Source: a virus
Lineage: Duplodnaviria; Heunggongvirae; Uroviricota; Caudoviricetes
Strand: one strand, 5' to 3'
IMG/VR virus record: IMGVR_UViG_2548876857_000005
Coordinates: 1-31,287 of that record
DNA: 31,287 nt
Shown one piece after another: positions 15,001 through 21,000 of the stretch. How positions within the stretch are numbered: position 1 is the first letter of the stretch; every line of letters starts with the position of its first letter. Made by a program: the position numbers.

Positions 15001-18000
15001 TGAAACGAACGCCTGTCCTGATTGATGTGAACGGCGTTCCGCTTCGTGAGAGTCTCAGCTACAACGGGGGCGGTGCAGGATTTGGCGGGCAAATGGCGGA
15101 GTGGTTGCCACCGGCGCAGAGTGCCGATGCGGCCCTGCTGCCCGCGTTGCGTCTGGGGAATGCCCGGGCAGATGATCTGGTGCGCAATAACGGAATAGCG
15201 GCCAATGCGGTGGCACTGCATAAGGATCACATTGTCGGGCATATGTTTCTTATCAGCTACCGTCCGAACTGGCGCTGGCTGGGGATGCGGGAGACCGCAG
15301 CAAAAAGCTTTGTCGATGAGGTGGAGGCGGCCTGGTCGGAATACGCCGAAGGGATGTCTGGCGAGATCGACGTGGAAGGAAAACGCACGTTCACGGAATT
15401 TATCCGTGAAGGTGTGGGCGTTCATGCGTTTAACGGCGAAATCTTTGTGCAGCCGGTCTGGGATACGGAAACCACGCAGTTATTCCGTACGCGTTTTAAA
15501 GCCGTGAGTCCGAAACGGGTGGACACGCCAGGACACGGTATGGGGAACCGTTTTCTGCGGGCCGGGGTGGAGGTCGATCGATATGGCCGTGCCGTTGCGT
15601 ACCATATCTGTGAGGATGATTTTCCTCGCTCCGGGAGTGGACGATGGGAACGGATCCCGCGTGAACTTCCCACCGGGCGTCCGGCCATGCTGCATATTTT
15701 CGAGCCGGTGGAGGACGGGCAGACCCGTGGGGCCAACCAGTTTTACAGCGTCATGGAACGGCTGAAGATGCTCGATTCCCTGCAGGCAACACAGCTTCAG
15801 TCGGCCATTGTGAAGGCAATGTATGCAGCGACGATTGAAAGTGACCTTGATACCGAAAAGGCCTTTGAATATATCGCCGGTGCGCCGCAGGGGCAGAAGG
15901 ATAATCCGCTTATTAATATTCTGGATAAGTTCTCCACCTGGTATGACACGAATAACGTGACGCTGGGTGGTGTCAAAATTCCGCACCTTTTCCCCGGGGA
16001 TGATCTGAAACTACAGACTGCGCAGGATTCAGACAATGGATTTTCGGCGCTTGAACAGGCGCTGCTGCGGTATATCGCCGCCGGTCTTGGCGTTTCCTAC
16101 GAACAGTTGTCCCGTGATTACTCGAAGGTCAGTTATTCAAGTGCCAGGGCCTCTGCCAATGAGTCGTGGCGCTATTTTATGGGGCGGCGAAAATTTATTG
16201 CGGCCCGGCTGGCCACGCAGATGTTTTCCTGCTGGCTGGAAGAGGCACTTCTTCGGGGGATTATCCGTCCGCCACGGGCGCGTTTTGATTTTTATCAGGC
16301 GCGATCAGCCTGGTCACGGGCAGAGTGGATTGGTGCCGGAAGAATGGCCATTGACGGGCTCAAGGAGGTTCAGGAATCGGTGATGCGCATTGAGGCCGGA
16401 CTGAGCACGTATGAGAAAGAGCTGGCGCTGATGGGCGAGGATTATCAGGACATTTTCCGCCAGCAGGTCAGGGAATCTGCAGAGCGGCAAAAAGCCGGAC
16501 TCTCACGTCCGGTGTGGATAGCGCAGGCGTATCAGCAGCAGATAGCGGAGAGTCGCAGGCCGGAAGAGGAGACAACACCCCGTGAGACGTAATCTTTCAC
16601 ACATTATTGCCGCAGCATTCAATGAACCGCTGCTTCTGGAGCCCGCCTATGCGCGGGTTTTCTTTTGCGCGCTCGGGCGCGAGATGGGGGCAGCAAGTCT
16701 TTCGGTACCACAGCAGCAGGTACAGCTTGATGCTCCCGGAATGCTGGCTGAAACGGACGAGTACATGGCCGGAGGTAAACGACCGGCCCGTGTTTACCGG
16801 GTGGTGAACGGTATTGCTGTACTGCCGGTGACCGGCACGCTGGTGCACCGGCTGGGGGGTATGCGGCCATTTTCCGGAATGACAGGCTATGACGGCATTG
16901 TCGCCTGTCTTCAGCAGGCAATGGCGGATAGCCAGGTGCGGGGCGTACTGCTGGACATTGACAGTCCGGGCGGGCAGGCCGCCGGCGCGTTTGACTGCGC
17001 TGACATGATTTACCGCCTCCGTCAGCAGAAGCCGGTCTGGGCACTGTGCAATGACACGGCCTGTTCTGCAGCCATGCTGCTGGCGTCGGCCTGCTCCCGA
17101 CGGCTGGTTACCCAGACATCCCGTATCGGCTCCATTGGCGTGATGATGAGCCATGTCAGCTATGCCGGTCATCTGGCGCAGGCCGGTGTGGATATCACGC
17201 TGATTTACTCAGGGGCGCACAAGGTGGATGGCAATCAGTTTGAAGCCTTACCGGCAGAGGTTCGCCAGGACATGCAGCAGCGCATTGATGCGGCGCGCCG
17301 GATGTTTGCCGAAAAAGTGGCCATGTTTACCGGTCTGTCTGTTGATGCCGTCACGGGAACAGAGGCCGCCGTTTTTGAAGGTCAGTCCGGCATTGAGGCC
17401 GGGCTGGCGGATGAATTAGTCAATGCGTCGGATGCCATCAGTGTGATGGCCACGGCGCTGAACAGTAATGTCAGAGGAGGCACTATGCCGCAATTAACTG
17501 CAACGGAAGCCGCCGCGCAGGAGAACCAGCGAGTGATGGGGATCCTGACATGCCAGGAAGCGAAAGGACGTGAACAGCTTGCCACGATGCTGGCAGGACA
17601 ACAGGGCATGAGCGTTGAACAGGCCCGGGCGATTCTGGCCGCGGCGGCACCGCAGCAGCCGGTGGCATCCACGCAGAGTGAAGCCGATCGCATTATGGCG
17701 TGTGAAGAAGCGAACGGTCGTGAACAACTGGCGGCAACGCTGGCGGCGATGCCGGAGATGACGGTGGAAAAAGCCCGCCCGATCCTGGCTGCTTCACCGC
17801 AGGCGGATGCCGGACCCTCACTCCGTGATCAGATCATGGCACTGGATGAGGCAAAAGGGGCTGAGGCGCAGGCTGAACAGCTGGCTGCCTGCCCGGGAAT
17901 GACTGTGGAGAGCGCCCGGGCTGTGCTGGCTGCGGGATCAGGTAAGGCAGAACCGGTCTCTGCATCCACAACCGCCCTGTTTGAACGCATCATGGCGAAC

Positions 18001-21000
18001 CATTCACCGGCTGCGGTACAGGGTGGCGTGCCACAGACGTCAGCAGACGGTGATGCGGACGTGAAAATGCTCATGGCCATGCCATGAAGTCAGTGCTGAC
18101 CATCAACAGGAGGTTTTTACAATATGGTAACGAAAAACATCACTGAACAGCGTGCGGAAGTACGTATTTTTGCCGGTAATGATCCGGCTCATACCGCCAC
18201 AGGCAGCAGCGGGATTTCCTCGGCAACACCGGCACTGACGCCCCTGATGCTGGATGAAGCCAGCGGGAAACTGGTGGTCTGGGACGGACAGAAAGCCGGT
18301 AGTGCAGTTGGCATACTGGTACTGCCGCTTGAAGGCACAGAGACGGTACTGACCTATTACAAGTCGGGGACCTTTGCGACGGAGGCAATCCGCTGGCCTG
18401 AAAGTGTGGATGAACACAAAAAGGCAAATGCCTTTGCCGGCAGTGCCCTGAGTCACGCGGCGCTGCCGTAACACGTTATCAGGCCACCGCGGTGGCCTGA
18501 CTGATTTCTGAATGAAAGGAACTGATTTATGGGATTGTTTACGACCCGCCAGTTACTCGGTTATACCGAACAAAAAGTGAAATTTCGTGCGCTGTTTCTG
18601 GAGCTGTTTTTCCGCCGTACGGTGAATTTCCATACCGAAGAGGTGATGCTGGACAAAATTACCGGAAAAACGCCGGTGGCGGCCTATGTCTCCCCGGTTG
18701 TTGAAGGAAAAGTGCTGCGTCATCGCGGTGGTGAAACCCGCGTGTTACGTCCGGGCTACGTCAAGCCGAAACACGAATTTAATTACCAGCAGGCGGTTGA
18801 GCGTCTTCCCGGTGAAGATCCGGCTCAACTGAACGACCCGGCCTACCGTCGTCTGCGTATCATCACCGATAACCTCAAACAGGAAGAGCATGCCATTGTC
18901 CAGGTGGAAGAAATGCAGGCGGTGAATGCCGTGCTGTATGGCAAATACACCATGGAAGGGGATCAGTTTGATACTGTCGAGGTGGATTTTGGACGCTCTG
19001 AAGGAAATAACATTGAGCAGGCCGACGGTAAAAAATGGTCTGAGCAGGACCGTGATACGTTTGATCCGACGCATGATATTGACCTCTACTGCGATCAGGC
19101 CAGCGGTCTTGTGAATATTGCCATTATGGACGGTACTGTCTGGCGTCTGCTGAATGGTTTTAAGCTGTTCCGCGAAAAACTGGATACCCGTCGCGGCTCA
19201 AATTCACAACTCGAAACGGCAGTGAAAGACCTGGGGGCGGTGGTGTCTTTCAAAGGGTATTACGGCGATCTGGCCATTGTGGTGGCGAAAACGTCTTATG
19301 TGGCAGAGGACGGTACCGAAAAACGTTATCTGCCGGAGGGCACGCTGGTCCTGGGAAATACGGCTGCAGATGGGATCCGTTGTTACGGTGCCATTCAGGA
19401 TGCGCAGGCGTTGTCCGAAGGTGTGGTGGCTTCTTCCCGTTACCCGAAACACTGGCTGACCGTGGGCGATCCGGCCCGTGAATTTACCATGACGCAGTCC
19501 GCACCGCTGATGGTGCTGCCGGATCCGGATGAGTTTGTGGTGGTGCAGGTGAAATAATCCGTGAGCGGGGGCGAAATGCCCCCGTGTCTTTTTTCACAGG
19601 GGGCTGATATGGCAACAAAAGAAGAAAATCAGAAACGTCTTCGTCAACTGGCTGGCCTGCTGGGGCGCGAGGCGGATATGTCGGGGAGTGCTGCGGATAT
19701 TGCGCAACGTGTGTCTGAGTGGGAAGAGGAGCTTGCTGCTTCCCGGGAGGGCATTATGCCTGGTGATGAGAGCGGGCCTGAGCAAAATCACACAGACGAT
19801 GGTGAGCAGTTGCACAACACTGATGCTACGGATGATGTTAAAGCGGTCCGTGTGCGGAAATGCCTGCATGTGATGGGGTATTGCCCGGAGACAGGCCGTC
19901 CCGTTGAACTGACGTACCGGGGCATGCGTGTTCTGGTGCCATTACCACTGGCGACAGCCATGATACAGCACGGAACGGCTGAGCATGCGTGATTTTCAGA
20001 ATGCCTTTGATGCTGCCCTCGCCGGGGTGGACAGCACGATTGTTGAAGTGATGGGGCTCTGTGCGCAGTTCACCTCGGGGGCACAGTGTGGCAGCGAAGT
20101 TCAGGGGGTTTTTGACGATCCGGAGTCGCTGGGGTTTGCCGGTGGCGGGGTCCGTATTGAAGGAAGCAGCCCGTCATTATTTGTGCGGACGGATACGGTT
20201 CGTGCCGTGCGGCGTGGTGACACGCTGACCATTAATGGTGAGATATTCTGGGTGGATCGTGTTTCTCCGGATGACGGGGGCAGCTGTTATCTCTGGCTCA
20301 ACCGTGGTCAACCACCCGCAGTTAACCGGCGACGATAAACGCAGGGTGAAATTATGGCGATAAAAGGGCTTGATCAGGCGATTGACAATCTGAGCCGGGT
20401 TCGTAAAAACGCCATTCCGGCGGCTTCAGCAATGGCCATTAACCGCGTGGCCACAACGGCGATTAATCAGTCTTCATCACAGGTTGCCCGGGAGACAAAG
20501 GTTCGCCGGAAACTGGTTAAGGAACGGTCCAGACTGAAACGGGCGACGGTCAGAAATCCGAATGCCAGAATTATCGTTAACCGCGGTGATCTCCCGGTGA
20601 TTAAGCTGGGGATCAGGATGCCGGGGCGTCGTCCGGACAGCATACTCAAAGCCGGTCAGCATCGTTATCAGCGGGCATTTATTCAGCGATTAAAAAATGG
20701 TCGCTGGCATGTCATGCAGCGTGTGGTCGGGAAAAACCGTTACCCCATTGATGTGGTGAAAATCCCGATGGCGGCCCCACTGAAACAGGCGTTTGATGAG
20801 AATGTTGACCGTATCCGGCGTGAACGTCTGCCCGGAGAACTGGCATACGCGCTGAAACAACAACTGAGGATTGCGATAAAACGATGAAACATACTGATAT
20901 CCGTGCTGCAGTGCTGGATGCACTGGAGCTGCATGAACACGGGGCGACGCTGTTTGATGGTCGCCCCGTTGTTTTTGACGAAGAGGATTTTCCCGCGGTC

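Follow-up and report, generated by a model that had tools for sequence, protein, structure and literature searches.

Three copies of a Nu3-type scaffold module in the gene 5/6 protease-scaffold locus of a phage-21-like prophage

The closest described relative of the locus examined here is the head gene operon of phage 21. Three repeat_region features are marked in its GenBank record (M81255), under the names 'Tri1 box', 'Tri box' and 'Tri3 box' and with the remark 'function unknown; putative'; gene 6, for a scaffolding protein, is annotated in both phage 21 records (M81255 and OL657228). In phage lambda, interactions of Nu3 with itself, with C, with B and with E have been reported (PMC3224144). 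We have examined the corresponding locus in a 31,287-nucleotide (nt) stretch of viral DNA (IMG/VR record IMGVR_UViG_2548876857_000005, positions 1 to 31,287), here called the window, which is the head operon of a phage-21-like lambdoid Escherichia coli prophage. In our reading, to which we assign a probability of about 0.8, gene 5/6 of the window specifies an S49 protease and a Nu3-type scaffold with three Tri-box modules, for which we propose a role in assembly contacts. The triplication of the scaffold module is itself already known, being annotated in the phage 21 GenBank record.

Gene 5 matches phage 21 gene 5/6 (M81255, OL657228) in one piece, with 98.7% nt identity over 1506 nt. The window holds a prophage copy whose 501-amino-acid (aa) protein differs from phage 21 gp5 by eight aa substitutions, and the 501-aa product, the 200-aa nested product and the three repeat segments are the same in both. 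When projected onto the window, the Tri1, Tri and Tri3 boxes occupy 17552-17655, 17692-17802 and 17833-17946 and coincide with the repeats that we defined by hidden Markov model (HMM). Near-identical genes are found in the isolated phages ev017, 4A7, 1W, 3W and the PhiR series (including PhiR12). Prophages of E. coli O157:H7 and other strains carry copies that match the window segment at 100% identity, and 1870 of 5426 complete E. coli genomes contain the region. A literature search found no open text on the Tri boxes, the original phage 21 head-gene paper being outside the texts retrieved. Peptidase_S49 (PF01343) matches aa 146-293 of the 501-aa protein with E 6.2e-35 (120.9 bits against a cut-off of 24.9), and SppA structures match it at 3e-16 in a PDB sequence search, in which all matches were confined to the protease domain.

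The original prediction, made from the DNA alone, was that the C/Nu3 region contains three tandem, divergent copies of about 40 aa of a motif that occurs once in lambda, and both the homology of the copies and the single lambda copy were borne out. The three repeats show 45-61% protein identity between copies and share 16 invariant columns. Local BLOSUM62 scores between repeat pairs are 87-101, compared with 25-27 ± 5 in 2000 composition-preserving shuffles (z = 11.7-15.7), none of which reached the observed score, and each repeat aligns with the single lambda segment (aa 357-399) at z = 13.5-22. These pairwise local alignments were used instead of BLASTP of the scaffold against itself, which returned the identity alignment alone. 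A repeat HMM (a 4-sequence profile) gave three domains in the window protein (independent E-value ~1e-24 each) and one in lambda C, at aa 357-399, and a broadened 173-sequence profile, followed down to a domain E of 1, gave one copy in lambda, N15 and phi80 and three in the window protein and in Gifsy-1. The alignment with lambda C led to the same result, with the three segments homologous to each other and a different copy number, one, in lambda. The open reading frame (ORF) list and the lambda record also agree with the predicted lengths of C, 501 aa against 439 aa in lambda, and the repeats do lie in the part of C that is common to the nested scaffold ORF, from aa 314 onward with the ATG at 17485. 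Among the peptides quoted with the prediction the second and third are exact, while the first was misread by one residue and begins RVMGILTCQ, not IMGILTCQ.

The region is alanine-rich and, by prediction, largely disordered between helices, as might be expected if the similarity of the repeats were a compositional artefact of an Ala/Glu/Gln-rich low-complexity region, or if the copies were an assembly duplication. However, the shuffles preserve composition and never gave the observed scores, the invariant columns run through all copies, and the same three copies are found in the independently sequenced phages 21, ev017, 4A7 and Gifsy-1, in a region carried by the 1870 E. coli genomes. An artefact of this kind is scarcely credible.

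Each window copy is closest to its positional counterpart in Gifsy-1, with 71, 79 and 65% identity for copies 1, 2 and 3, compared with 50-62% for non-corresponding pairs. This 1:1 orthology of the three copies indicates that the triplication predates the split between the phage 21 and Gifsy-1 head lineages. Between the paralogous copies, identity is 68-82% at codon positions 1 and 2 but only 35-41% at position 3. The ratio of nonsynonymous to synonymous substitution rates (dN/dS) between the window and Gifsy-1 was 0.08, 0.10 and 0.26 for repeats 1, 2 and 3, 0.14 for the three cores together, 0.11 for the protease domain and 0.27 for the linkers plus tail, these ratios being rough because dS between the two is saturated. 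As judged from such codon comparisons, all three copies are held by purifying selection on the protein.

Constraint on the protein in all three copies counts against a function of the 'boxes' at the level of DNA, for instance as sites for protein binding or as recombination signals that fall by chance within a coding region. Such a function would account for the name chosen in M81255, and in OL657228 two matches to the CII-site pattern are annotated within gene 6, on the opposite strand. On the other hand, the nt identity between copies falls mainly at the first two codon positions and is 24-47% at position 3. Tandem Repeats Finder gave no arrays over 16000-19000, because the copies are too diverged in DNA; between the copies there are only imperfect direct repeats of 12-15 nt, and no inverted repeats were found. 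What is more, the CII pattern TTGYN6TTGY was found 4 times in the window, where chance would give 6.8. We consider a function at the DNA level very improbable. The two CII-binding sites annotated in OL657228 (window 17490-17503 and 17724-17737, minus strand) were set aside, as a pattern at chance level carries no statistical weight.

We searched 1.84 billion representative proteins with a profile of 42 positions built from the three window copies, and 438 of them matched at E≤1e-3. We re-scanned 152 proteins, comprising the best 150 of the 438 matches together with lambda C and the window protein. One copy was present in 134, two in 12 and three in 6, and the multi-copy proteins were mostly close relatives or fragments of the 21 type. 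By these profile matches a single copy is usual, and triplication is the mark of the 21/Gifsy-1 lineage. Among the representatives with 300 aa or more, 55 of 58 had a Peptidase_S49 domain, with the module ~40-100 aa from the C-terminus. The family consensus, RIxGILxCEEAKGRExLAxxLAxxPGMTVEQAxxILAAAP, has I, E, A, G, R, A, L, A, A and L as nearly invariant residues. No Pfam family covers the module in a Pfam scan, and the PHROG head scaffolding and capsid assembly families each match the nested product three times. The distribution and the PHROG matches together identify the module as the conserved core of the scaffold domain in an S49 protease-scaffold family.

The number of modules is not fixed within E. 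coli. We surveyed allele lengths over the 120 closest protein clusters and found two copies in alleles of 451-452 aa, three in those of 491-501 aa, ~2.5 in those of 472 and 482 aa, where part of the middle copy is deleted, four in those of 551 aa and ~5.5 in the one of 657 aa. The 451-aa allele lacks 150 nt, deleted in register between copies 1 and 2 at a shared run of 8 nt (GAAGCGAA), and the 482-aa allele has lost 57 nt within copy 2, between CTGGC(G/T) repeats. The sequence-collection index lists the 482-aa protein in 3592 blocks. Both the 2-copy and the ~2.5-copy alleles occur on independent long contigs, including megabase contigs, within complete head operons. Their junctions are clean, and these alleles of E. 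coli prophages are products of unequal recombination between copies. The longer alleles are of a different standing. The two 551-aa alleles (comparison sequences L007 6001-7656 and L014 1274-2929) come from two assemblies of one project and each have two Ns exactly 150 nt apart in the repeat; we rejected these 'four-copy' alleles as probable assembly artefacts. The 657-aa allele (CP007136.1; L015 3001-4974) has an exact 468-nt tandem duplication without Ns that stretches from the protease domain's end into the middle of copy 3; it was seen in one complete genome only and may be either real or an artefact.

These alleles bear on the possibility that one module suffices and that the two extra ones form a structured spacer, replacing the long linker of the lambda type, with a nearly neutral copy number. 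The linker between the nested start and the first module is ~47-55 aa in the lambda type (lambda, N15 and phi80), where it is Thr/Ala/Gln-rich, compared with ~12 aa in the 21 type, and the 2- and ~2.5-copy alleles sit within otherwise near-identical head operons. Both observations would be expected of a spacer. However, all three copies are kept 1:1 between the phage 21-like and Gifsy-1 heads, and the dN/dS of the copies (0.08-0.26) is near that of the protease domain and does not exceed that of the linkers. In addition, when 60 best matches were sampled evenly from complete E. coli genomes the gene was full length in 58, and all 19 isolated phages covering at least 80% of the gene have three copies. 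We therefore regard a mere spacer role as unlikely, and prefer the reading in which all three modules serve in scaffold assembly.

In E. coli O157:H7 PV15-279 we observed two copies of the head region (L012 13476-19393 and L013 2792-8001), each with an identical 501-aa S49 protein. In both regions the terminase and portal genes are frameshifted and the major capsid gene is truncated. An intact 501-aa gene beside these broken head genes indicates that the three-copy gene persists in defective prophages.

It had also been suggested that expansion of the scaffold module could alter capsid assembly or size determination. Nothing in our data supports this, and some observations speak against it. 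The major capsid protein has 342 aa in the window and 341 aa in lambda, belongs to the same Pfam family and is 62% identical. Beside the 2- and ~2.5-copy alleles, the portal, decoration and capsid proteins share 95-99% identity with their window counterparts, the capsid protein always having 342 aa, and viable three-copy phages (21, ev017, 4A7, 1W, 3W, PhiR12 and others) have otherwise lambda-like head operons. Since copy number varies without change in the capsid, portal and decoration proteins, it does not track capsid type. A subtler effect, in which module number acts as a recombination-prone 'valency dial' that tunes procapsid nucleation, assembly fidelity or protease loading in a manner not so far described, seems to us rather improbable. 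It is suggested by three modules having been kept under selection from before the 21/Gifsy-1 split while 2- and ~2.5-copy alleles arise repeatedly next to the same capsid protein; if it were true, one could use the natural alleles as they stand to ask how the valency of the scaffold controls T=7 assembly.

The start of the nested scaffold gene is conserved. The putative ribosome-binding site of gene 6 in M81255 maps to window 17474-17478, and a Shine-Dalgarno (SD) sequence (GGAGG) with ATG at the homologous GG(T/R)M site is kept in all five of the window, lambda, Gifsy-1, N15 and phi80. In lambda the SD and ATG at this site of the C gene are at lambda nt 5332-5344 (comparison sequence L001 2833-2845), and the homologous site was also located at L004 2501 and at 1857 of both L005 and L006. 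The annotated start of N15 gene 6 is at this site. The RefSeq start of lambda nu3 is at Met239 (201 aa), 70 codons upstream of the homologous Met309 (131 aa). Thus the 21-type scaffold would be ~70 aa longer than the lambda product when counted from the homologous start, and is equal in length when the RefSeq start is used. Comparison of these sites suggests that the RefSeq-annotated lambda nu3 start may not be the homologous, or the only, start.

Coordinates of the features are collected in Table 1.

Table 1. Features of the gene 5/6 locus and its surroundings (window positions unless a comparison sequence is named)
Feature	Position	Strand	Description
Repeat 1	aa 314-358, 17521..17655	+	HMM domain 78 bits; overlaps phage 21 Tri1 box
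Repeat 2	aa 367-407, 17680..17802	+	HMM domain 81 bits; overlaps phage 21 middle 'Tri box'
Repeat 3	aa 414-455, 17821..17946	+	HMM domain 78 bits; overlaps phage 21 Tri3 box
C-terminal tail	aa 466-501, 17977..18087	+	Partial repeat start LFERIMANH; ends in short predicted helix DADVKMLMAMP
Gene 5 / lambda C homologue	16582..18087	+	501 aa, GTG start; S49 prohead protease (N-terminal ~300 aa) fused to scaffold domain
Nested in-frame gene 6 / Nu3-type scaffold ORF	17485..18087	+	200 aa, same as C-terminal 200 aa of gene 5; putatively expressed
Shine-Dalgarno GAGGAGG for nested scaffold gene	17474..17480	+	Read directly; 4 nt before ATG 17485
Portal gene, lambda family	15000-16592		Phage_portal_2 match; upstream of gene 5
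Decoration protein gene, lambda D-type	18124-18471		HDPD match; downstream of gene 5
Major capsid protein gene, E-type	18529-19557		Phage_cap_E match
451-aa allele genes	L008 6001-7356, L009 4359-5714		Homologues of window 16582-18087
482-aa allele genes	L010 and L011 6001-7449		Homologues of window 16582-18087

How the module might work can be outlined from the predicted structure. The alignment given to AlphaFold2 held close homologues only, and only the helix pattern is usable. In both models, of the nested product and of the full protein, each module is predicted to have a long helix that a short loop at PGMT joins to a second, short helix, with disordered linkers; further helices are predicted with low confidence in the tail, at gene-6 residues 160-172 and 190-197. 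Each module would then fold as a small helix-loop-helix unit, with flexible linkers between modules. Such a unit is likely to be an assembly contact element, making scaffold-scaffold and/or scaffold-capsid or scaffold-portal contacts. These contacts may serve to co-assemble scaffold and protease inside the procapsid, where the protease would then digest them. The scaffold of the 21/Gifsy-1 lineage would be trivalent and that of lambda monovalent, both building the same kind of capsid.

Several observations weigh against this interpretation. The models are of low confidence, with a mean predicted local distance difference test score (pLDDT) of 55 for the 200-aa nested product and 39 for the full 501 aa. 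A Foldseek search of the PDB with the gp6 model (pLDDT 55) gave no match at E≤0.001, the best having E 0.3; there is no scaffold protein among its 32 weak matches, for which the query was this low-confidence model. A separate scaffold product from the internal ATG at 17485 is one that we infer from the sequence. Finally, the natural 2- and ~2.5-copy alleles suggest that three copies are not strictly required. The low predicted order of gp6 is in keeping with lambda gpNu3, which is reportedly an intrinsically disordered assembly catalyst. We also considered and rejected a helix-hairpin-helix motif (PF00633), which scored 13.1 bits against a cut-off of 24 (E 0.093) in repeat 3 only, with RuvA/RecR Foldseek matches at E 3-9.

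Two further sequence resemblances were noted around the repeats. The opening of the tail, LFERIMANH (window 17977-18000), resembles a repeat start, and lambda has an equivalent, LDRLMQG (lambda C aa 410-416), after its single copy. A RIM-like fragment following the module in both the window and lambda suggests that the ancestral single-copy form already had a RIM-like helix on both sides. At the DNA level, the direct-repeat family D1 includes 17982-17996 in the tail. A very weak, non-significant match to the repeat profile (domain E 0.1-0.3) lies where the protease domain ends (window 17296-17349, C aa 239-256, RRMFAEKVAMFTGLSVDA). The same weak match appears in phage 21 gp5 and Gifsy-1 (E 0.1-0.3) and in phi80 and N15 (E 0.08), and none is listed for lambda C; it is probably due to chance.

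The order of the head operon in the window is Nu1-A-B-C/Nu3-D-E-FI-FII-Z, with the Nu1/A terminase genes upstream and FI, FII and Z homologues downstream, so that the lambda-type succession of portal (B), C/Nu3, decoration (D) and major capsid (E) genes is present. In the small-terminase ORF (window 12404-12913), aa 49-150 match only positions 62-163 of the 164-position Phage_Nu1 profile. Its N-terminal DNA-binding part differs from the lambda Nu1 model, as a difference in packaging specificity would lead one to expect.

As a discovery the triplication carries little weight, since it is on record for phage 21 and the window is a close prophage relative. The added value lies in its context, namely a conserved family core, old copies under selection, and natural 2- and ~2.5-copy alleles beside the same capsid genes. 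These copy-number alleles offer a cheap genetic handle on the role of the Tri boxes in procapsid assembly.

The P22 gp8-type scaffold, an otherwise flexible protein with a C-terminal helix-turn-helix coat-binding domain, a small helical hairpin, and with removal before DNA packaging, is a functional analogue. It is recycled rather than digested, and has no protease fusion and no tandem repeats. Neither sequence similarity nor significant structural similarity of the window scaffold to P22 gp8 was found in the Pfam, PDB sequence and Foldseek searches. The Gifsy-1 gpC homologue (STM2605.Gifsy1), of 498 aa, has three modules at the same positions and the same nested SD and ATG as the window, with ~53% identity over the scaffold region and a different C-terminal tail. 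Lambda C/Nu3 occupies the same gene position as the window gene, and the two C proteins have 54% aa identity overall, with S49 domains ~62% identical and the lambda module homologous to those of the window (59-62% identity in the core). The lambda protein, however, has one module and a long low-complexity linker in a C of 439 aa, whereas that of the window has three modules and short linkers in a C of 501 aa.

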